Assembly: GCF_030144855.1 (NCBI RefSeq)
Contig: NC_082725.1
Coordinates: forward strand, 13,268,001-13,332,000
Source of the DNA: Hypanus sabinus
Lineage: Eukaryota
Direction: 5' to 3'
Length of the DNA: 64,000 nt
Numbering within the stretch: position 1 is the stretch's first letter; each line of letters begins with the position of its first letter. The notes beneath the pieces were generated by a model that did not search any database, was not told the origin of the DNA, and saw only the letters and a program-made list of their open reading frames with translations. Below are positions 38,619-64,000 of the stretch, one piece after another. The position numbers and the translations under genes were made by a program.

Positions 38619-39148
38619 CACGCAGTGGCCACTTTATTAGATAGTCTTGTACACATGCTTATTAATGCAAATATTTTATCAGTCAAACATGCAGCAGCAA
38701 CTCAATGCAAAGAAGCATGCAGACTCATTCAACGGTTCACTTGTTGTTCAGACCAAACATCAGAATGGGGAAGAAATATGATCGCAGTAACTTTGCCTGT
38801 GGAATGATTGTTGGTGCCAGATGGGATGGTACTGGTCTCCTGGGATTTAACCACAACTGTCTCTAGAGTTTACAGAAAATGGTGCAACCCCCCCCCAACC
38901 CAAAATAAAACATCCAGTGAGAAAATGCCTTGTTAACGAGAGAGATCAGGGTAGAATGGCAAGACTGATTCAAGCTGACAGGACGGCAATAGCAATTGAA
39001 ATCACCAGGCATTAGAACAGTGGTGTGCAGAAGAGCACCTCTGAACACAGAACATGTCAAACCTTGAAGTGATTGGGCTACATTAGCAGAACACCCCAAA
39101 CATCCACTGTATTAGGTACAGGAGGTATCTTATAAAGTGGCCACTACG
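38619..39148 (+). mobile_element. Internally deleted Tc1-like DNA transposon
   Basis: TIR core CAGTGGCCACTTTATTAG / TATAAAGTGGCCACT; remnant of the transposase HTH region (RMARLIQADR...KSTSE...TLK*LGY.SR.P). Confidence 0.78.
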
Positions 39149-40990
39149 TACGTCTTCAAAACCCTCATGCTACACCAATAATGGAATGCAGGCTCAATTC
39201 CCCATCTGGGAGATAGTTAACATCCCTTTTTCTCAAGGAAGTAAAGGCAATCCTTAAACTACACGTTCTTCTGATATCCAATCGAAATGGAATGATTCAT
39301 AGCTGCAAGCCATGCTACCAGGCCAGAAAGCAAACAAAATACTCTTGATACGCAAGTTCTATGGTATTATCTAGCCTGAGTGCTCATTCATGTGTCAAAA
39401 TAAAGGGAACTGCATTTTTATATTCTGTGAATGGGTGGTATCTGGTCTTCTTGTGAAGTAAACGCTACCTTCCCAGGGAGCTCTCATGATTTTTATCATA
39501 AGGGAATCTGTGGAATCTGATTGAGAAGAACCCCGTACATTAAAATGTAATAGATAAACAGATCAAAGAATTCCTTTTAGTTTCTAAAAACACTTTAAGG
39601 ACATATACCCATCTTGTATTTTCAATGTTCTTCAGCCCTGTGCTCCTGCCTACACTCAGCATTTCCACTGGGAATTCCTCATTCTGTTGAATTCTTGAAC
39701 TAATGTTCCATCCTATTTCATAAGATGATACAAACACAAGAAACAGGAGCAGGAGTAGACCATCTGGGCTGTCAAGTCTGCTCTGCCATTCAATAAGATC
39801 ACAGTTGATCTGGCCATGGACTCATCTCCACCTACCTGCCTTTTCCCCATAACTCTCAATCCCCCGACTATGCAAAAATCTATCCAACCTTGTCATAAAT
39901 ATATTTACTGAGGTAGTCTCCATTGCTTCATTGGCAGAGAATTCCACAGGTTAACCAATTTTTGGGAAAATAAGTTTCCCATCTCCATTCTAAATTTACT
40001 CCCTCGAATCTTGAGGCTATGCCTCCTAGTTCTAGTCTCACCTACCAGTGGAAACAACTTTCCTGCCTCTATCTTACCCATCCCTTTCATAATTTTATAT
40101 GTTTCTGTAAGATCTCCTCTCATCCTTCTGAATTTCAGCAGGTACAGTCCCAGGTGACTCAATCTCTCCTCATCGTCTAACCCCCTCATCTCTAATCAAC
40201 CTGGTGAACCATTCTTCCTCCAATACGGCAATTAAGCTAATTCACTGTGCTTTACAAACTGTACAGTAAATAATCCAAAAGTATCAAAGGCACTATGAAC
40301 TCGAAAGTAAAGCAGACTGTGCAGGAAACCCTTTTAAAATCAGGCTGCATCTTTGGAAAGACAAATGCTACCTCTGCTCTCCAAGGCTTTTTAGTATTTC
40401 CTGCTCTTGTGAATTAAAGAAGCCTGTGCAATATTTTATTTCATCACTGTTCATGTCAACACAAACAGAAATTGGAATTGAGCAGTTGAAACATGGATGG
40501 ATACTGGTTGTTAGTATTATGAGTAAAAACATTGACACTTAACAAAGATGAACCAAAGATCGTTTTGAGCATGCTATATTCACAAAAACTACAAACGTCT
40601 AACCCAAAGCAACACACACAAAATGCTGTCATAACTCAGCAGGTCGGGCGACATCTATGGAGAGGAATAAACAGTTGTTGTTTTGGGTTGAGACTCTTCG
40701 TCGAGCCCGATTTAACCCTAACCTAATCACGGGACAATTTACAATGACCAATTGACAATTATCACAAGTATATTTTACCTTAGGCAGAACTGAACATAAT
40801 ATTCCAGATGTGATCTCACCAGGGCTTTTGTTTAACTGGAGCGATCAAAAACTTCTGCAATAATGACGAACGTGCAATTACACTCTTAATAATTGCTTGC
40901 TGTATGTGCACATTCATTTCCAGCAATTTATGTAAAATGACACTTCCTCAGTAAATGTTTGGGTTCTTCTTGATTTAGAAACCACAGTTA

Positions 40991-42704
40991 CATTTTGTAA
41001 TTCTGAAACATCAAACTAACTGAAAGAAAAGCATGGAGCCAGGAATAACATGTCTATTTCATTCCTTACTTTAGCAAGGCACACACCTACAACATGGTGG
41101 TATAATGATGTATGCCATTCACCTACTTTTACATATACCCCATAATGAATTATGTAATAAAATGCTTAATCAGCAATATTACTCAAATAATACTTAAATA
41201 TTAAATATACAACACTCCTCCCCGCTTAGCTATAAACTCCAACTCAATATAGAATACACATCAACTTAGATACATACACAAACACATTTATATATAGTAT
41301 ACTATATAATGCAACTACTATATAGACATCCTCAGCATAGTAAATCTTTTAATTTTTTTTAACTCAGGCCTGAAGATTTAATCACCGTGGAGGATTTCTT
41401 GCTCTTATGGGATAACGTGTTTCTGACAGGAGTGGGGGGGGGGGGGGGGTAGGGACACTACATTTGGCCGTGAAACGATCACTGGTTCTGTGTCCTCTTC
41501 CGCAGTGGTTGTAGGGGTTGACTCTGGGACTGCAGGAAGTGGCTCTGACAGCTCTGGACTCTCTTCTTTGCTAACAATCGACTCAACTGATCAATGGGTT
41601 GTCTCCAGAAATCGGACAGTGATCCAGTTCTGTCCTTCATCTTTTCAAGTATCCACTTTTGAACATCTCCATAGTCCCTCACCAGGACTGCTTGTCCAGC
41701 ATAGTGCTTTTGAGGTGGAGTGTGAGCAGATCCAAGCAAGAATGCAAGGGATGATCTGGGACCAGAACAGCTCGTGAGTTATTGGTTGTGGAGTGTGCTG
41801 CATTGCAATGTGCAAGGTGGAAATTAGCGAGCTTCTGATTCAGTGTCAGTGTAGTGTGCTCTGATAACATTGCTCACAGTGTATTCTTTAGGACAAACCT
41901 TTACACCAAGCCATTTGCAGCTGGGTGGTGTAGTGCAGGTGTAATATGTCTTATTCCATTCATTTTCAAAAATGACTGAAACTGTTCAGCAACAACTTGT
42001 GGTCCATTGACAGTATCTAAATGTTTTGGAACACTGGTCTTTGAAGAGGCTTCTCAACATGTGAACAGTGCACTAGACTGTAGTGGGGCTATTGGGAATA
42101 CTTCTGGCCAGTTTGCAGCTGCATCCACTATAATGAAACTTGTGTCCTTGAATGGTCCAGCAAAATCCACATGAATCCTCTTCGGGACAATGCAGGCCAT
42201 TCCCAGAGATAGCAGCTTCTGGATGTGTTGGCACCCTGAACAATTCATGGCATGTGGATCGATCTACTGATCTATCCTAGGCCACCAGAGAAAGCTTTGA
42301 GTCAATATTTTCATTTTGACCATGCCTAGATAACTGGCATGTGGCTCCTCCAACACTTTAGCTCCCAGCTTGGTTGGTACAACAACCCTCAATCCCCACA
42401 AGGTAAACTTCACCAAGTTCATCCTGATGCTAGCAAAAAATAGGGGAAGCTGGGATTTTGGTTGCACATTTTCTGTTGCCATGTAGACCTAAAACATTAT
42501 GGGGTACTTTCAGATTTCCCTTTGGATCATCTCTGCTATAATAGACTTACAATTTGCATTAGGGAGAATATATCAAGGAGTCTCCTCTCTTTAAATTTTT
42601 CAGGTGTTCCGTTTTCCCAATGGTTTACAGGACAATCCATCAACAATTCCACAGTTATCCTCTTGTATTCAATATTGTAATTGTGTCCTCCAAGAAAGAG
42701 CCCA
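40991..42704 (-). mobile_element. Ty3/Gypsy LTR retrotransposon remnant (end of RNase H, integrase, PPT, 3' LTR at about 40991-41214)
   Basis: Minus-strand fragments LFLGGHNYNIEYK, LWGLRVVVP...LGMVKMK, RIHVDFAGPF, WPEVFP. PPT AAGCGGGGAGGAG is followed by TGTTGTAT. Confidence 0.88.
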
Positions 42705-44609
42705 CTTCCGCATGTGCCCCCTGCTGACGGGAACAGTAAACATGCAGGGAGATGTACAAGTTTGGGATAATGAGGAGGAAAAAAGACAATACGAGAAGAA
42801 AAAAGCGGCGATATGGAAGGAGATACAGGCAGAAAGGATAAAGGTGGAACAGGCAAAGAGAGAAATGAAAGAAGAGATTGAACGGATGAAATACTTGAGG
42901 GAGGAAAAGGAGTATGAAGAGTATCGGTTATACTATAGAAATAAACAGACTAGAAAAGAAAGTGGCTCATCAGGGCAAGAAGAGATGAGGCATTCAAGAG
43001 GAAGTGGAAAAAAGATAGGAGATGAGAGTCTTGGAGAAACACAAGAGAGAAGTGAATCAAGCACGAGTAAGGATCATGAGGAGTCCCTGCCACAGGTGTA
43101 CAGACACGGACAGGAAGAAAGAGAAGGTGACTCATTGGAGGAGCAAGAGTTAAGTGGAGAGAGAGAGGATATGAGAATTTGTGGGGAAGAGGTAGGAGGC
43201 AGAAGCCTAGAAGAGCAGAAGGAAGCGGTAGGGGGGCGACTTGTGGAGGTAGAGAGAGAGCTAGATAAGTTACTGAGAGGGGATTGCCAGAAGAGATGCG
43301 AAAAATACTCCAGGGGCCAACCGAGTATTGAATCAAGACAGAAAGGAAGGACTCCACAGGGAGAGGAGGGAAGAAGAGGACCCCGGAGAAAATTTGTGTG
43401 GGAGGCAGTAAAGTCATACCCTGAGACAGATGGGGAGTCAGGTGAGGAGGAGAGCCAGGTCAGGTGGGAAGGAGGAGGAAGAATGATGCCGTTGTTAGTT
43501 AAAGGATCAGGACAAGCGCATTATATCCCTTGGGGATCCCAGGACCTAGAAGGGCTGAAAAACACTCTGCCCAATCTACATGAAGGAGCAGGGAAATGGA
43601 TTAGAGCCTTTGAAGAAGAAACGGCGGGAAGATTATTGGCTATGGGAGATTTGAAGGCACTATAAATAAGGTTGAAGGGAACCTCCAAATTTAACAAACT
43701 AATGGAAATGGCTGGCATAATAAACTCGAACGACCCTAAAACTGATGGAGACGGGTTTGACAGAGTGAGGCAGAGGGTATGGCAGGCCCTCAGGAAGCTT
43801 TATCCACCCAAAGTAGACCCAAACCCTTAAAGGGGGATCCACTGGGAGACACTGAAAACCCAGCAGCCTGCGTAGAAAACCAGTTGAAAAGGTGGAGACT
43901 GGAGACTGAGCAAGAGGTGGATAATAGCTTATTTATCACCACACTGTTCTGACATAGCATTTTGGATGCAATGCCTCCACAAGTAAAATCCAAACTGGAG
44001 GAAGTAGTTGGGCTGACATCAATGACCCCACAAGAATTTAGAGACCACATAGTTCATGTGGTTGAGAAGTACCGGAAAGACAAACGAAGGTTGGCTGAGC
44101 AGCAGGAAGAGGTGCAAAGAAAGTTAATACAGAAGCAGCTCAAAGAACTCAAAAAGGAAAAAGAGAAAAGTAAAAAGATGCTGCCAGCAACCACCTGTCC
44201 GAGTACAGCCATCGAACGGGATGAAGCACCACTATATGGAGGAACCGATCTTACTGTAAGACAAGGGCTGGAAAACCCTATGCCAATAATCAATGTCTTT
44301 GGAGGAGCATTCCCACAAATGCCCTATCAGGAACAGACTGAATTCAAACAGCCCAGACAGGACTGGAAGTCCCAAGGAGAGGGACAGAGGAGCTATGGGC
44401 AGAGGGGACCAGTGAGGAAACAGGGGGAAAGGGAGATAGAGAGATTGTGCTGGGGATGCAATCAGCCAGGTCACATGAGAAGAGATTGTCCGTTTACACC
44501 ATGGCCTGTCACACACCAGCAGGAACCGATAAGAAGGGAACTAAAGTTTAGCCAAGGACCAGCCCCCACAGGCCCAAGCGGACCTGTGAACCCCTATGCG
44601 AGGTATTAG
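42705..44609 (+). pseudogene. gag: ERV gag (N-terminus lost; stops and a frameshift at about 43663, 43825 and 43950)
   Basis: Capsid-like YIPWGSQDLEGLKNTLPNLHEGAGKWIRAFEEET, a coiled coil, and zinc knuckle CWGCNQPGHMRRDC (44448-44489); ends in TAG at 44607-44609. Confidence 0.9.
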
Positions 44610-47600
44610 GGGTGCCCCGAGAACTCGAGTGGGAAGGGACATTACCCAATGATAACAAGGGAGGCAGACGAGGAACCCATTGTTCAGGTTATGTTAGAAG
44701 GGCAACTGACACCAATGATGATAGATACTGGAGCCATGTACACTTGTGTACAGCCACAGTATGCCCTTCACCTTCCCATGTCAGGAAAGTTTATTAAGAC
44801 GGTAGGGTTCTCAGGGAAAACACAGATGACACAGTACGCGGCTCCAGTGCAGTTGAGAATGGGAAATAAAGGAATTGTTTTGCTGGTGCTAGTACTTAAA
44901 GGAACTCTGATTAATTTGTTAGGCAGAGATGCCTTATTGAAACTGGAATTAAAATTAGAATGCACCAGAAATGAGCTGAGTGTGGAAAGAGCAGGGGCTC
45001 AATTGATAGTGCGAGAAGACAAGAAGGCTAATGTCTTTTGGATAGGAGGCATTGCAGATCAGATTCAGGAAACCTGGGAAAAATGGAAAAAGGGCGTGCA
45101 GGCTATATTACTCAGGGCTGTAATGCCCAAATCTGAGCTACATTGTACAGTGATTTTTGATGAGACTCAGAACAGTGAGTTAGAGGAGAGGTGGCACCTG
45201 GAGGCATGTACCCAACAGCACCTGGAAGGGGAGTCTGTGATAATTGGAAAGCAAGGGGCAGCTTTACAAGTTAAGTGGAACACCTTTTTAGAAAAATGGT
45301 ACAGGATAACAGAGGCTGCGCCCCACGTAACGCTGTTGGTAAACAAGGGATATCAGTCTAAAGACTTAGGACCCTTAGCTAAGAGTGCTGAAACCATAAC
45401 AGTGTGGAGGAAAATCACGCCAGAGGTGTGGATATCAGAAGACAACAATTGCATTAAAATAATGGTAAGTGTAGATATGGTAGGGACAGTGAGAGAGGTC
45501 GAAATAACTCCCCAACCACACATGCCATTGCTGGGAAAGGAAAGAGGCCAGCAGAAAGATAGAAGGTTAGATGAGTTGCCATCTATTCTGTGGTCACAGC
45601 ATGACAGCTAGTCCGGTGGAAATAAGGCTGAAAAAAGGAGCAATTCCACCAGGAGACCACAATACTCTCTAAGACCAGAAGCAGAAGAGGGAATAGCATC
45701 GACAGTGCAGGGGTTGCTTAAAATAGGAGTGCTTAAAAGAACAAACAGTCCATGCAATACCCCATTGCTGCCAGTCTTAAAAGCAGATAAATCTAAGTGG
45801 AGATTGGTGCATGATTTGCGAGCAGTAAATGATGTGGTAGAGGACTGGCCAGCGGTAGTCCCCAACCCACACACACTTTTGACTAATATTTCACCAGAAG
45901 CAAGTTACTTTTCAGTGATTGATTTGTGTTCGGCTTTCTTCAGCATTCCTCTGGCCGACCAGTGTCAGTATCTGTTTGCATTTACTTACAGAGGTGCTCA
46001 GTATACCTTTACCAGAATGCCGCAAGGGTTTAAACATTCACCACGTTTTTAATCAGGTGTTGAAGGCAGACCTAGAGGGCATACCATTGGAAAGTACATT
46101 GTTACAGTATGTGGATGACCTGTTGATTTGCTCCCACAGTAAGGAACAGTGTGAGCAGGACACTATAACTCTGTTAGAGAAGCTGGCACATGGAGGACAT
46201 AAAGTATCCAAAAAGAAAGTGCAATTTTGCACGCAGCAAGTGGAATACTTAGGCAGGGTAATATCCAAGGGAGTGAAGGCAACAGCACCAGATCAGATTG
46301 AGGCAATAACTAAGGCCCCAAAACCCCAGACTGTAGGGCAGATGATGATGTTTTTGGGAATGGCAGGGTACAGCTCAGATTGGATAGGAGACTATGCTGA
46401 GATTGTGGCACCTTTGAGAAAGATAATGAAAGAAGCAGGACATACCAGTTTGAAGAACGGTTTACAGTGGAATGGAGAGGCAGAGATAGCTTTCAATACT
46501 ATTAAGCAAGAAGTGCAGTCAGCACCAGCATTAGCTTTGCCTGACTACAAGAAGGTTTTTCATTTGTATGTATCCAACCAACAGGAGGGTTATGTCACAG
46601 CGGTTCTAACACAAGAGACAGGCACAGGAAAAGCAAAGCAGCCGATAGCATACTACAGTACGAGACTAGATGAGGTGGCTCAGGGGTATCCACCCTGTTA
46701 TCAGGGATTGGCGGCGCTGTACCATGCATATGAAAAGGCATCATCTGTAACCCTGGGCTATCCTGTGACTCTGTACACACATCACAAAGTAGCAGAATTC
46801 CTGGAAAGAGGGAAATTCGTGCTGAAGCCAGCCAGGATAGCAGCGTATCAGATGCTATTGACATTTCCTGACATAAGTATACAGAGATGCACTACCAGTA
46901 ATATAGCCGATTTGGGCTATGAAGGAGAACCCCATGATTGTGTAGGGAAGACGATGGCATTTGCCAAATTGAGAGCAGATTTACGGTCAGAACCACTAGA
47001 GGATATAGATAAAAAGGTTCTGTTCGTAGATGGCTCTTGTTATAGGGATTATGATGGAAATCATGCAGGGTTCTCAGTAGTGCAGCAGGATCAGTCGAGC
47101 TATAAGATTATTAGGATGGAGTCCTGTCCCCAACCGTGTTCTGCCCAACTAGCGGAAATCAAAGCCTTGACAGCTGTGTGTGAAATGATGGAAGGTGAGA
47201 AAGTAGACATCTATACTGATACGGCATATGCTCATGGAGTATGCCATTTGTTCGGGTGTGGAAATAGAGGTTTTAAAAAAAGCAGTGGAGATCCCATACA
47301 ACATTGTCAGCAAATTCTAGACTTAATAAAAGCCATAATGAAACCTAAAGCATTGGCTATAGTAAAATGCCAGGCACATATAAAGGGAAATGATGTAATA
47401 ACAAAGGGAAATCAAGCTGCAGACGAGGCAGCCAGAAAAGCATCTGGATGTACTTCAGCTGTCATTGCCCCCCAGGTAAGCTTAGCTCCAGAACCTGTGG
47501 TAGAGGACCTGATTGAAATACAAGGCAAGGCAACTTTGGCAGAATAGACAATGTGGAGACGAAGGGGGGCCGAGCAGAACCCGGAAGGCTTGTGGAGCAT

Positions 47601-48167
47601 GGAAGACGGTTTGTTGGTAGCGCCCACCCCTCTACTGACATTTCTGATTTCAGAAGCGCATGGGATTGACCATTGTGCAAGGGGGGAAGTGATAAAGAAA
47701 ATAAAGAAGGATGGTTTTTGGTCAGCTTATTTACAGGCTTCATTGGACTTTGTCTTGTCACAGAGCGAGGTATGCGCACAGAATAATGTTCAGAAGGGAA
47801 TTACAACCCCAATAGGTCACATTCCTGTACCTGAAGGACCATTTAAACATCTAGTGATCGATTACGTAGACATGATAAAGACAGTGAGAGGGAAAGGACA
47901 CATGCTGGTAGTAATTGATCGATTTAGCAGATGGGTGGAGGCGGTACCTTCAAGAGATCAAGGGGCAAAGACAGTGGTAAAATTTCTGACAAATGAAGTG
48001 ATCCCAAGGTTTGGAATTTCTACAGAAGTTAGCTCAGACAATGGTTCAGCTTTTATCCAGAAAGTGGTCAAATTGGTACTACAAGCGCTGAGGATAAAGC
48101 AAAGATTTGGATGTGTATACCACTCTCAGTCGCAGGGCATGGTAGAGAGAATTAATGGAACCCTGAA
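44610..48167 (+). pseudogene. pol: ERV pro-pol: protease, 2H-phosphoesterase-like insert, RT, RNase H, truncated integrase
   Basis: DTG at 44724 and NLLGRD; HCT at 45141 and HVT at 45324; MPQG and YVDD (46108-46119); RNase H FVDGS, AQLAEIKAL, YTD; integrase H-H, IDY, SDNG, ERING. Disruptions at about 45610, 45650, 46045 and 47545. Confidence 0.93.
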
Positions 48168-48605
48168 GGAGGAGTTTGTGTGATGTTTGGAGAGAAGTGC
48201 TGTACTTTTATACCAAATAACACTAGTCCAGAAGGATCGTTTACTAAGGCAATGTATAAGTTGAAAAGTCTAAGAAAGGAAGTTAAACAGAATGTAGGGT
48301 CCAGACATCAGTTATTTGACTGGTTAGAAAGAAGACTCGGAGGATGGGGAGCATGGCTGACTAAAATGGCAATAACTGTCAGTATTGTATTGTTGAGCTG
48401 TGCGCTTGTGCTGTGCTGTTTTCTTCCTTGTCTCAAGTCTCTTGTAGTGCGTGCTGCAACCAAACGATTTCCGATGCTCATGGCAATTACTGAAGCAAGC
48501 TTAGTGGAGAAAGAAACACCGAAAATGTATCGTTACAACCTACAACACCTGCAGGATGAACAAGAGCAAAACGACAGTGTGGGAGTAGGTTGTAAGGGCT
48601 TCTGA
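48165..48605 (+). pseudogene. env: ERV env remnant (C-terminal half of TM subunit only)
   Basis: EGGVCVMFGEKCCTFIPNNT (gamma-type CX6CC plus an N-glycan site), heptad region, and membrane span AITVSIVLLSCALVLCCFLPCL. Confidence 0.9.
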
Positions 48606-48814
48606 GTTTTTTTCCCTGTCTCAGGTACAAAGGGACAGGTTTTTGGCTCAGCGGCCCAGGGTAACAGGGAGGGAATACTTTGAGGTCTTGGCGCAGAGAA
48701 TTATAGTTTAACCCGAGATTTGGGAATAAGTGCTTGAGTTTATTGGGGCTTTTGTGCGCGGACTCTTAGTCTTCTTTCTCTGTGTGAGACCCTATGGGTC
48801 TCAAAGGAGGGATA

Positions 48815-49231
48815 TATTGGAGTATAAAAGTTGCATTGTTCACTGTGTAACCAAAACTATGTAGTCAGCTTTGAGCTTGCTATTTGCTATGCATGTATCC
48901 AATTTAGTAGGAGAATGAAATCGCAAGAATGTAGAAGATAATGGTGTGTTAATGAGAAGTAGCTAAGAGATGTAGAGTAGAACATGATTAAATCAATGGG
49001 TAGAAACAATAGTGGCGGATGTACTTGTGATATGCAACTGTAGACCGATTGGATATGCTTATACAACGAAACCAGGAGATTGCTATAAAAAATGCTATGT
49101 ACAAGGATCAGTGGGCAATCAGCAACTAGCTCAATGACTGTCTCAGCTTTGATTTGCAAATTAAAGTTTAATACTTCTTGAAGAATCTTCTGCGTCTCCA
49201 GGTCGTTTGTGGGGCACGAGAAACCACGACA
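48815..49231 (+). repeat. ERV 3' LTR preceded by PPT (AAAGGAGGGA, 48803-48812)
   Basis: Starts TAttgg (degenerate TG) just after the PPT; TATAAAA at 49084, ATTAAA at 49160; ends ...ACGACA. No second LTR is present to confirm the boundaries. Confidence 0.75.
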
Positions 49232-59245: not shown

Positions 59246-59739
59246 AAGATTTGCGAGCCACGAAGGTTCTTGTGACATATATTGTATTGTACAATGCAAA
59301 ACTATACTTTTAATTATTTTCATTATTGTAAGAAACCAAAGGCATGAATTTGAGAACATCTGAATTTGTATTGCTCAGCTTCAGTTTATGAATAGTTGAA
59401 AAATGTTTTTAAACCACAAACCAATACAAATAAACAGTTAAAATCACAACGTATTTTATAATTGCTATGAAACATTTCAAAGCATTGACAATGTACTTGA
59501 ATTATATTTATTTTCAGTGAAATTGATATCCATGTTAACATTTAACATTGCAAGGTATTTTATATCTACTATATACCATTTTGCACTTTTCAAGCTTTTA
59601 AGACCAAAAGGGAAGGGTGAGGGTGGAGGGGGAAGAGAGGTGGTGAGGGAGGGGATGAGGAGGTGGAAGAGAGGCAGAGAGGGGATGAGGGGAGAGAAGA
59701 TTAAGTGTGGGGGAATGAGGGAAGGGGAGTGATGGGAGA

Positions 59740-61660
59740 GGAAGGGAAGAGGGAGAGAGGGGGAAGGGGAAGAGGGAGGGAGGGAGGGGGAAGGGGAAGA
59801 GGGAGGGAGGGAAGGGGAAGAGGGAGGGAGGGAAGGGGAAGAGGGAGGGAGGGAAGGGGAAGAGGGAGGGAGGGAAGGGGAAGAGGGAGGGAGGGAGGGG
59901 GAAGGGGAAGAGGGAGGGAGGGGGAAGGGGAAGAGGGAGGGAGGGGGAAGGGGAAGAGGGAGGGAAGGGGAAGAGGGAGGGGAAGGGAAGAGGGAAGGAG
60001 GGGGAAGGGGAAGGAGGGGGAAGGGGAAGAGGGAGGGAAGGGGAAGAGGGAGGGAAGGGGAAGAGGGAGGGGAAGGGGAAGAGGGAGGGGAAGGGGAAGA
60101 GGGAGGGGAAGGGGAAGGGGAAGAGGGAGGGGAAGGGGAAGAGGGAGGGGAAGGGGAAGAGGGAGGGAAGGGGAAGAGGGAGGGAAGGGGAAGAGGGAGG
60201 GGAGGGGAAGAGGGAGGGGAGGGGAAGAGGGAGGGGAGGGGAAGAGGGAGGGGAGGGGAAGAGGGAGGGGAGGGGAAGAGGGAGGGGAGGGGAAGAGGGA
60301 GGGGAGGGGAAGAGGGAGGGGAGGGGAAGAGGGAGGGGAGGGGAAGAGGGAGGGGAGGGGAAGAGGGAGGGGAGGGGAAGAGGGAGGGGAGGGGAAGAGG
60401 GAGGGGAGGGGAAGAGGGAGGGGAGGGGAAGAGGGAGGGGAGGGGAAGAGGGAGGGGAGGGGAAGAGGGAGGGGAGGGGAAGAGGGAGGGGAGGGGAAGA
60501 GGGAGGGGAGGGGAAGAGGGAGGGGAGGGGAAGAGGGAGGGGAGGGGAAGAGGGAGGGGAGGGGAAGAGGGAGGGAGGGGAAGAGGGAGGGAGGGGAAGA
60601 GGGAGGGAGGGGNNNNNNNNNNNNNNNNNNNNNNNNNNNNNNNNNNNNNNNNNNNNNNNNNNNNNNNNNNNNNNNNNNNNNNNNNNNNNNNNNNNNNNNN
60701 NNNNNNNNNNNNNNNNNNNNNNNNNNNNNNNNNNNNNNNNNNNNNNNNNNNNNNNNNNNNNNNNNNNNNNNNNNNNNNNNNNNNNNNNNNNNNNNNNNNN
60801 NNNNNNNNNNNNNNNNNNNGGAGGGGGAAGGGGAAGAGGGAGGGAGGGGGAAGGGGAAGAGGGAGGGAGGGAGGGGGAAGAGGGAGGGAGGGAGGGGGAA
60901 GGGGAAGAGGGAGGGAGGGGGAAGGGGAAGAGGGAGGGAGGGGGAAGGGGAAGAGGGAGGGAGGGGGAAGGGGAAGAGGGAGGGAGGGGGAAGGGGAAGA
61001 GGGAGGGAGGGGGAAGGGGAAGAGGGAGGGAGGGGGAAGGGGAAGAGGGGGGGAGGGGGAAGCGGGAGGGAGGGGGAAGGGGAAGAGGGAGGGAGGGGGA
61101 AGGGGAAGAGGGAGGGAGGGGGAAGGGGAAGAGGGAGGGAGGGGGAAGGGGAAGAGGGAGGGAGGGGGAAGGGGAAGAGGGAGGGAGGGGGAAGGGGAAG
61201 AGGGGGGGAGGGGGAAGAGGGAGGGAGGGGGAAGGGGAAGAGGGAGGGGGGGGAAGGGGAAGAGGGAGGGAGGGGGAAGGGGAAGAGGGAGGGAGGGGGA
61301 AGGGGAAGAGGGAGGGAGGGGGAAGGGGAAGAGGGAGGGAGGGGGAAGGGGAAGAGGGAGGGAGGGGGAAGGGGAAGAGGGAGGGAGGGGGAAGGGGAAG
61401 AGGGAGGGAGGGGGAAGGGGAAGAGGGAGGGAGGGGGAAGGGGAAGAGGGAGGGAGGGGGAAGGGGAAGAGGGAGGGAGGGGGAAGAGGGAGGGAGGGGG
61501 AAGAGGGAGGGAGGGGGAAGAGGGAGGGAGGGGGAGGGGGAAGAGGGAGGGAGGGGGAGGGGGAAGAGGGAGGGAGGGGGAAGGGGAAGAGGGAGGGGGA
61601 AGGGGGGAAGGGGAAGAGGGAGGGGGAAGGGGGGAAAGGGGAAGGGGAAATGGAGGAGGG
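59740..61660. repeat. Polypurine (G/A) simple tandem repeat containing an assembly gap (N at 60613-60819)
   Basis: GGGAGGGGAAGA-type units, almost no pyrimidines. Confidence 0.95.
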
Positions 61661-61714
61661 GGGATGAGGTGTGGGGAGGGAGGGAAGGGAGGCTATGGAG
61701 GGGTGGAAGACAGA

Positions 61715-62094
61715 ACCCACACGTACATCCTCCCTGACTTGTCTCTGGTCGGTCGCACCTGGTCCTCGCCCCTCGGCGCCGCCCCCAGCCCGCAGAGCAG
61801 TGGTTGCCTGGAGACGGAGCCTGTTGTCTGGCCGCCTCCCCTCCTCCAGGACAGGCAGGCGAGGTTGCGGCGGACGGGTTGCTGTGCAGCGCCGGTGTGG
61901 GATGCCCCGACGCCCGACTGGACGCTAGCGTCAGCGCCGCACGGCAGGGCTCGGCAGCCGGGTGATGGATGGTGTCCGCGGGCCACGCAGAGCCACCGGC
62001 CTGAGCCCCAGAGCTGCGGGGCTCCGCAGCAGAGCCGCCCAGACGAGGTCACCGGTGGACTCCAAGGAGACCAAGGTTTGTTTGCGTCCCATGT
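61715..62094. other. Orphan CpG-rich segment
   Basis: High GC and CpG density between the purine repeat and the minisatellite; no recognisable protein in any frame. Confidence 0.55.
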
Positions 62095-62229
62095 GGAACA
62101 AACTGTGGAATAAACTTTAAGTTTAGGAACAAACTGTGGAATAAACTTTAAGTTTAGGAACAAACTGTGGAATAAACTTTAAGTTTAGGAACAAACTGTG
62201 GAATAAACTTTAAGTTTAGGAACAAACTG
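62095..62229. repeat. Perfect 31-bp minisatellite, about 4.35 copies
   Basis: Unit GGAACAAACTGTGGAATAAACTTTAAGTTTA starts at 62095, 62126, 62157 and 62188, with a partial copy at 62219. Confidence 0.95.
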
Positions 62230-64000
62230 AGCAGGGCAACTTTAGGTGCATTTCACGGCGATTCCCACGGGCTAGAGACATGTAAAGTTATGACCCACCT
62301 CTGCCGTAATTCATTCAACTCAAGCGGGTGTTAAACAGTCGTGCTCACTGGTTTCTAGGTATGCCAATGCCTAAATGAATTTCACACACCGAGAATGCTG
62401 TTCACTGTATGTCCCGAACTTATTCATCAGATATTGAAATTTACAACGGCTTAATTGACTTCAGAAATAGGCTGAGGTGGAAATTGAATCTGCGTACATG
62501 CTGATTTTTATTAACGTTAGATGCCAAACTCCGCCAAATGTTTGCTCTGCTACCCAGTGACCGGCTTTCGCATATAGATGATTCGGCACGATCGTGGTAG
62601 GTAAAAGCTTCAAAGAATCACTTGTTTTCAGAAACTCTAGAAAACTGCAAATATTTGAAAGCTGAAATCAAGGGGAAAGGATCAAAATTAATTGACTGCA
62701 CATGCAGGAAAAGAACCCGAAAGTTGTGCAAGAAGTAAGTGATCAAGAAGAAAAAGAGAAGTCACCGTAACGCCCCAGGTGAAAATCATAAAGAGATAGC
62801 ACTTCCAAATCACTTTGTGTAGCAGTTAGTCAGATAATTAGACATAATAGTAATGATCATCTGGGCGTGCAGTGAGTTCAGTTGTGGAGTCACCTGAAAT
62901 GAGAGAATCTGTGGTTGACCTTTCATTGATCCGGTTGTAGTTACTATTTTGTAGATTTGCTGAGTATGCCCGCAGGAAAATGAATCTCGGGGTGGTACAG
63001 TATCTGGTGACATTATATGTACTTTGATATTAAAATTTACTCTGTACTTTGTTGTCACAAAGAATTCTCAAGGTACTGAATTTGCCTGTGACTCCTGTGT
63101 TAGACCACTCAGCCCTTTTTATAGTCAGCAATTTTCAGTTGCCGAACCCACCACTAATTAAAATGTAATTAAAATGTGTGTGTGGGGGGGGGGGGAACTT
63201 CCTGCCAGAAATGAAAAGTGCAGAAATATTCATAAGTGCAGAAGTATTTACCTCTGGAGGAACAAATGATTGAATATGTAATGTCCCTGAATAGCAGATA
63301 GGAAAGCTTCTAGATTCCTACATGAATTTGGCAATAGATTGTCAACAGGAGGTTCATTTTTTCAAATGAGTGACTGATGCCCAGATAAGTTTTGTAGTGA
63401 GAATAGAGCTAGCAGGTATTTGAGATCTCAACCCATGAACCTGGAGAAAGGAAAATAAATAGCTTACCTTACCAGGGCTGTCAAGCAAAGAATCATCTTT
63501 ATATTGTCCAACTTCCATACATGACACTGAAGTCCAGCTGATTTGAAAATATGTAAAAGTTCACTGCACTCTGTTTGGGTTAATGTGATAGGCAGGCTAT
63601 TTCCTTTTGATCTGGGCGTATAACTGCTTGAAATTGCATGAATTTCTGTTACAAAAATCTGTACATGCAGTTAATCATAATTGACAGTTTAAGGCTGTTG
63701 AAGAAATGATGCCAGTTTAAAAAAAAATTTCTCAGGATACACATTACACTGGTGAGCAAAGTTGCAGTTATCCCTTCTATTGCAATTGTAGGTTTTTGCC
63801 AAAAACAAATGCCTCAGATCTTAAATTGAAATGTTGACTTCACTTCAAAAACGTGTGCAAATCTCCCCCACCACTTACATTCCCTCTCACCTGCTTTTAT
63901 CTATCACCTTATAGCTTGTATTCCCTCCTCCCTCCCCCCATCCCCTATCATCACTTTATTCTGGCTTCCTTCCCAGTCCCACTGAAGGGTCTTGGCCAAA

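Follow-up and report, generated by a model that had tools for sequence, protein, structure and literature searches.

The Pol frame of a retrovirus integrated in the genome of the ray Hypanus sabinus carries, between the protease (PR) and the reverse transcriptase (RT), an insert that is predicted to be a conserved 2H domain with the CNPase fold. The original prediction had called the insert a CNPase-like 2H domain, and this call is backed by a predicted structure, by conservation among related viruses and by an independent language-model search. On balance, the domain is likely to be a virion-associated 2',3'-cyclic-phosphate 3'-phosphodiesterase that would be made in Gag-Pol by readthrough and packaged. 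The copy found in the window, which is the whole 64,000-nucleotide stretch that was analysed, is an ordinary dead provirus.

2H or CNPase domains in fish retroviruses were noted two decades ago. An excerpt of PMC9503650, citing Mazumder 2002, places 2H domains in fish retroviruses including WDSV, and PMC4977317, citing Basta 2009, reports that CNPase or macro domains can be encoded by epsilon-like ERVs of fish. The ray domain is a further member of this set. It appears to belong to the same epsilon-like group as the published domains and has homologues in teleost ERV Pol and walleye-virus-type Env, but here the host is a cartilaginous fish and the family has a high copy number. No functional test of a retroviral 2H domain was found in the literature searched, a coverage outside which subscription journals and preprint supplements lie. 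PMC9503650 and PMC4977317 fit the earlier statement that the module had been noted without functional characterisation. The words "domain", "CNP" and "phospho" are absent from the elephant-shark ERV paper PMC4422223, and "retrovir" is absent from the main text of three recent surveys of viral 2H proteins (PMC11410667, bioRxiv 2025.08.21.671373 and bioRxiv 2023.05.12.540623), although the bioRxiv supplements may list retroviral 2H domains. One supplementary file of PMC9503650, in the portion available, has no "walleye" row.

The provirus and the insert in its Pol frame

The provirus is defective, lies on the plus strand and spans approximately 42600-49230 of the window. Its gag (42595-44609) is broken into frames 42595-43665 and 43953-44609, has one zinc knuckle (zf-CCHC, E 9.9e-5) and ends in TAG. 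This amber codon (44607-44609) lies in frame at the gag/pro-pol boundary, where the open reading frames 43953-44609 and 44610-45611 abut; gag and pol share one frame with an amber codon between them, a feature of epsilon-like class I retroviruses. By analogy with the biology of gamma- and epsilonretroviruses, readthrough of the amber codon would produce Gag-Pol. PR (DTG ... LLGRD, 44667-44957; PF00077) spans residues 20-116 of the 333-residue stop-free frame 44610-45608 (E 5.8e-9) and is followed by the insert. The RT-RNase H region (45570-47547) is interrupted by an early stop codon (45609-45611) and by frameshifts around 45600-45650 and around 46045, and the RT pieces lie downstream of the 2H frame in broken frames that begin at 45612 and 45919. 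A deletion fuses the shortened integrase core (47548-48183) to an env remnant (48156-48605), of which only the TM part is left (TLV_coat E 6.6e-4, below the curated cut-off). A probable 3' LTR (48812-49231) lies 3' of a purine tract and matches a segment of locus L008 at 85%. No 5' LTR partner was found within 39000-44000 and no 5'/3' repeat was seen. Gypsy-type integrase-like fragments on the minus strand (41430-42500), recognized by eye, adjoin the truncated gag where a 5' LTR would be expected. Elsewhere in the window, at 59600-62250, purine-skewed tandem repeats with units of about 23 nt and 31 nt flank an N stretch (60613-60819).

The distance between the Pfam PR and RT matches is about 286 residues in P0012, a homologue with the insert, and about 112 residues in the insert-free epsilon-type Pol of L063, one of three epsilon-type Pol proteins that made up the insert-free comparison set. 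The stop-free extra residues are therefore real and amount to about 175, not the 150 or so first proposed. The folded core (residues 17-176 of P0002) corresponds to 45027-45506 of the window. The two HxT motifs, likewise confirmed, are H-C-T at 45141-45149 (HCTV from 45141), with Phe at His +5, and H-V-T at 45324-45332 (HVTL from 45324), with Gly at His +15 as in the host CNPase; they are 61 codons apart.

Predicted fold and relation to CNPase

The AlphaFold model built on a 72-row alignment has a pLDDT of 94.4 and a pTM of 0.87, with lower confidence at the termini. This check had been proposed together with Foldseek, and it gave a predicted 2H fold that matches CNPase best: each of the 41 PDB matches listed was to CNPase or to RICH of fish, with TM 0.52-0.64 and a best E of 9e-6. 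A VIA search of 48,161 chains, which is independent of Foldseek, ranked CNPase first (Z 15.7, rmsd 3.8, 165 residues aligned), followed by drCPDase (9.7), LigT (9.0), ns2 (8.4), Usb1 (8.3) and plant CPDase (8.0), with Acb1 (7.8), VP3 (7.4-7.8), AKAP18 (7.5) and penguinpox PDE (6.5) lower down. Nearly all of the 21 VIA matches with Z >= 5 are titled as 2H enzymes, and the next match had a Z of 4.2. In the ESM atlas the top clusters belonged to the tRNA-ligase cyclic phosphodiesterase family PF08302 (0.96; 18-63% of members), followed by 2H-SAK (PF22547, 0.94) and Acb1 (0.89). Sequence searches of the PDB were less informative. Profile A1 matched PR and RT chains only, the domain profile A2 matched no sequence, and a single-sequence search gave weak matches to aprataxin and eIF4A (best E 0.049) that were judged to be due to chance.

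In model numbering, H55 and T57 are placed before strand 56-61 and H116 and T118 on strand 116-121. The latter strand is followed by a helix (127-139), and the loop and helix feature of CNPase (beta5-alpha7) is present, the equivalence being one of spacing. The superposition of 165 residues on CNPase implies that both His residues would lie in one cleft.

Vertebrate CNPase and fish RICH (2xmi, 1woj, 2i3e) are the best structural matches, and the viral domain has in common with them the two HxT motifs, an aromatic residue at His1+5, and a loop-helix element that follows His2 and has an identically spaced Gly. The viral domain differs in being about 50 residues shorter, in its identity to CNPase of 10-15%, in falling below the Pfam cut-off and in its location inside a viral polyprotein. 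It has no N-terminal kinase-like domain, since PR is directly upstream, and no Arg307 equivalent. Pfam CNPase (PF05881) did not match the window protein and matched 2 of the 72 alignment members weakly (E >= 0.011); PF08302 gave a weak match in one of the 72. A comparison of the domain profile with the host CNP exon gave a probability of 3.9%.

The substrate-binding features of CNPase include the base-stacking Phe235, the ribose-binding Tyr168, Arg307 and the beta5-alpha7 loop (PMC4643303, in part). Among the viral homologues, an aromatic residue is found at His1+5 in 82 of 91 and Pro at His1-5 in 84%. Gly at His2+15 is present in 90 of 93, spaced as it is in the CNP exon of the host, and an aromatic residue at position 20 in 69 of 71, which was matched to Tyr168 by eye against the host exon. 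The Arg307 equivalent, two residues before His2, is present in none of 93. In mouse CNPase the effect of losing Arg307 is a raised Km only, according to the accessible text of PMC4643303. The viral domains are acidic, with a median net charge of -10.

Language-model features place the domain nearest to the fungal and protist tRNA-ligase CPD (PF08302) and 2H-SAK (PF22547), from which the same chemistry would be expected, but the virus has no ligase or kinase partner. The tRNA-ligase CPD and CNPase have a 2'-phosphate chemistry in common. This chemistry is described in a portion of PMC5434554. On this evidence the domain is predicted to work like CNPase and to stand outside the vertebrate CNPase gene family. 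It may have been captured from CNP or from a tRNA-ligase-type CPD; the evidence fits either origin equally.

Distribution in retroviruses and in the ray genome

A phmmer search of 1.84 billion representatives gave 160 matches, and among the 150 listed both motifs are kept in 80 of the 101 that cover both. A single-sequence search for longer proteins with the domain found none, and a domain-profile search found 71. Reduction of 157 near-full domains at <70% identity left 93 non-redundant homologues with a mean identity of 30%. The motifs are near-invariant in these related ERVs, as the original prediction would have it: His1 is kept in 83 of 86 and its Thr/Ser in 85 of 87, His2 and its Thr/Ser each in 91 of 93, and the HxT-HxT spacing is mostly 61-63. 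That four residues are retained at 30% identity points to prolonged selection while the viruses were replicating. Most of the homologues are Pol proteins from ERVs of teleosts, and wherever a host is named for a long homologue it is a teleost, apart from one record labelled as a bacterial MAG. Of 24 longer homologues scanned with Pfam, most have the domain located between PR and RT. Among 99 long homologues, the domain is preceded by a PR motif and followed by an RT motif in 35 and has just one of these flanking motifs in 48; 15 have neither, and one has RT on both sides. A scan of viral contigs with P0167 found nothing.

Variations in domain context have been observed. Many cichlid proteins (P0063, P0074, P0115, P0195-P0205) have the order PR-2H-RNase H without the RT polymerase domain, which suggests amplified deletion derivatives that retain 2H; several of them bear unrelated host gene names. 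The domain of P0048 (436 aa) follows a coiled-coil-like region, with no Pfam match and no PR motif, and may represent a third context or an artefact of the gene model. The PR-2H protein P0208 is labelled as from a Cetobacterium sp. MAG and comes from a 2.9-kb contig that is likely fish-host DNA in a gut bin.

The domain also has a second location. A Foldseek search of viral models gave a 1,072-residue model first (TM 0.83), followed by the Env polyproteins of WEHV1 (TM 0.73) and WDSV (TM 0.72). In L063, a 12,708-nt viral contig, a matching domain (E 7e-13, hhalign 96%) follows the transmembrane segment of Env, with HFT at 1025 and HVT at 1087, 62 residues apart. The layout is as in WDSV, and L063 appears to be of the walleye-virus type. 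The 2H insert is absent from the Pol proteins of L061, L062 and L063. The presence of the domain in Env means that it need not be fused to RT, and both Gag-Pol and the Env tail face the particle interior or the cytosol, which suggests that the domain acts there. In a domain tree of 39 rows the Env-tail domain is on a very long branch, so that the tree is compatible with relocation and with separate capture. In an RT tree a group with P0069 and the epsilon-type L061-L063 had support of 100/100, in a set of 28 fish-type rows only, with no outgroup and with long branches flagged. Several Pol-type groups recur, by eye, in the RT and domain trees. A second membrane helix has been predicted in WDSV Env at residues 1045-1069 (PMC3185748). 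In the Env of L063 (5974-9645) this helix falls between the HxT motifs at 1025 and 1087, on the buried hairpin of the domain. It is probably not a membrane span, and if so the proposed topology of Env changes.

In the 4.04-Gb genome of H. sabinus there are at least 150 matches with 89-100% identity over the whole domain (150 were scored among 1,006 candidates). Close matches among database proteins are limited to three from H. sabinus, with 88-90% identity, which are open reading frames annotated by NCBI. Thirty loci, the window copy among them, were chosen by RT DNA for pairwise comparison, and the copies differ by a dS of about 0.08 and a dN of 0.044. Pairwise dN/dS is 0.56 (CI 0.40-0.79) for the domain, 0.53 for PR, 0.51 for RT and 0.46 for the gag end; these are uncorrected Nei-Gojobori counts, which transitions bias low, and values near 0.5 are therefore no proof of selection. 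The RT-chosen sample has a selection bias of its own in the RT N-terminus, where dN/dS is 0.24. A first estimate for 2H of 0.27, from 20 copies, was dropped, as the copies had been selected by similarity in the domain, which gives the same bias. There are 11 stops in 4,670 codons of the domain. All four motif residues are kept in 21 of the 26 covered copies chosen on RT DNA, a fraction equal to the 0.81 expected arithmetically from the dN of the family. The motifs are indeed intact in this dead copy, as had been pointed out, but intactness carries no signal, given that it is found at the expected rate.

It is highly improbable that the window copy has been co-opted and is now a ray gene. Its PR-2H frame is open for 333 codons and the three similar open reading frames carry NCBI annotation in H. 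sabinus, yet it is one among at least 150 similar copies, the motifs are kept at the expected rate, and the domain, with its stops and a dN/dS equal to that of PR and RT, decays like the remaining pol, so that the window copy is without a mark of co-option. The family is present in 16 of 18 listed sequencing runs, in contigs that show presence and cannot show expression. Three short contigs from an RNA library labelled "viral metagenome" (run X9) are 90-99% like the PR-2H stretch and may come from a host ERV transcript or from DNA.

Possible roles of the domain

The proposed role begins with amber readthrough, after which Gag-Pol would carry the 2H domain and the domain would enter particles as part of Gag-Pol. 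Its release by the protease is uncertain and it may remain joined to RT; in 20 sequences inspected, the linker that joins the domain to RT had no evident conserved PR-site pattern. The CNPase reaction leaves a 3'-OH. The domain would convert 2',3'-cyclic phosphates on RNA ends or on free nucleotides to a 2'-phosphate and a 3'-OH. The virus may benefit by having a 3'-OH restored, for use by RT, where primer or genomic RNA has been nicked, or by the removal of cyclic-phosphate ends that are read by innate sensors. Such ends are cited as stimulating RIG-I/MDA5, NLRP3 and TLR8 (PMC8406329, in part), and an immune role is thus possible without a messenger nuclease. Opening of 2',3'-cyclic phosphates was given only as an alternative in the original prediction, and with CNPase at Z 15.7 it is the alternative that fits better. 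The identity to CNPase of 10-15%, the weak profile links and the absence of Arg307 count against it, and a median charge of -10 is a poor fit to the binding of a polyanion such as an RNA end. Small alterations of the core are enough to shift the substrate choice of 2H enzymes (bioRxiv 2025.08.21.671373, in part), and this plasticity also counts against the cyclic-phosphate assignment.

The original prediction favoured an innate-immune antagonist like ns2, VP3 or Acb1, and this has become the weaker option. The viral domain resembles MHV ns2, rotavirus VP3-CTD, phage Acb1 and the penguinpox cGAMP PDE in its 2H fold, its motifs and its viral accessory setting, but the structural scores are far lower (Z 6.5-8.4 compared with 15.7 for CNPase) and on this evidence these phosphodiesterases belong to a different branch of the superfamily. 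Retroviral cDNA is a ligand of cGAS. A cyclic dinucleotide nuclease that cleaves cGAMP could blunt the sensing of reverse-transcribed DNA by cGAS-STING, a role for which delivery within the virion would be fitting. Cyclic dinucleotide nucleases of the 2H type in avian poxvirus and phage provide precedents (PMC11410667, in part), and there are weak Acb1 signals (Pfam E 0.14, BFVD E 1.3e-3, atlas 0.89). We nevertheless regard this activity as unlikely, since Acb1 and the penguinpox PDE reach Z values of 7.8 and 6.5 only, the Acb1 Pfam score is 12.4 bits against a cut-off of 27, and the domain did not group with Acb1. Destruction of 2-5A by a 2',5'-phosphodiesterase, blocking OAS-RNase L as ns2 or VP3-CTD does, is very unlikely and the weakest of the messenger-nuclease options. 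OAS genes do form a tandem array on host contig C31 (25 exon matches altogether), and ns2 (Z 8.4), VP3 (7.4-7.8) and AKAP18 (7.5) are recognizable matches, but with scores about half that of CNPase (7.2-8.4 against 15.7) none of them is the closest neighbour. The motifs are, moreover, conserved in viruses of teleosts, and OAS is absent from some teleost genomes (PMC2852836, in part). The array is OAS/OASL-like, has about seven genes and lies at 79.65-79.85 Mb of C31 (L021-L024). RNase L was not found in a host family search for the RNase domain, a search that cannot show absence. The two exons that it matched are presumably from IRE1.

Two further proposals depart from messenger cleavage. The hydrolysis of another cyclic phosphate, for example ADP-ribose 1''-2''-cyclic phosphate in conjunction with viral macro domains, would agree with the fish ERVs reported to have CNPase or macro domains (PMC4977317, in part), with the match to plant Appr>p CPDase (Z 8.0) and with an acidic surface that suits a small substrate. 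It is quite unlikely, however, as the macro family is absent from all 24 longer homologues scanned and from all 71 precomputed domain sets. There is also a slight chance, a little below that of 2-5A cleavage, that the domain is non-catalytic and acts as a Gag-binding protein or a decoy that mimics CNP, a host protein that restricts the assembly of lentiviruses. CNP is cited in PMC5434554 (in part) as binding Gag and blocking assembly in primate lentiviruses, and both locations of the domain, in Pol and in the Env tail, would be at the assembly site. A decoy would not need the four catalytic residues, which are among the most conserved at 30% mean identity.

The cyclic-phosphate assignment and the dual location in Pol and Env are the useful leads from this work. 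The domain is a small, well-folding enzyme candidate that is directly testable. A result from an assay would add an activity to the retroviral set of PR, RT, RNase H, IN and dUTPase, and might help to explain what CNPase-type enzymes do physiologically. A broader and more tentative proposal, which we consider possible but rather doubtful, is that the virions of fish-type retroviruses contain a fifth enzyme. This would be an ancient phosphodiesterase that heals RNA ends (or destroys cGAMP); it would have been passed on with Pol in both rays and teleosts and would be located in the Env tail of the walleye viruses, with two unrelated routes loading the same activity into the particle. If this is true, repair of cyclic-phosphate ends by a retroviral enzyme would be seen here for the first time, keeping RNA primable or hiding the scars of nucleases from innate sensors.
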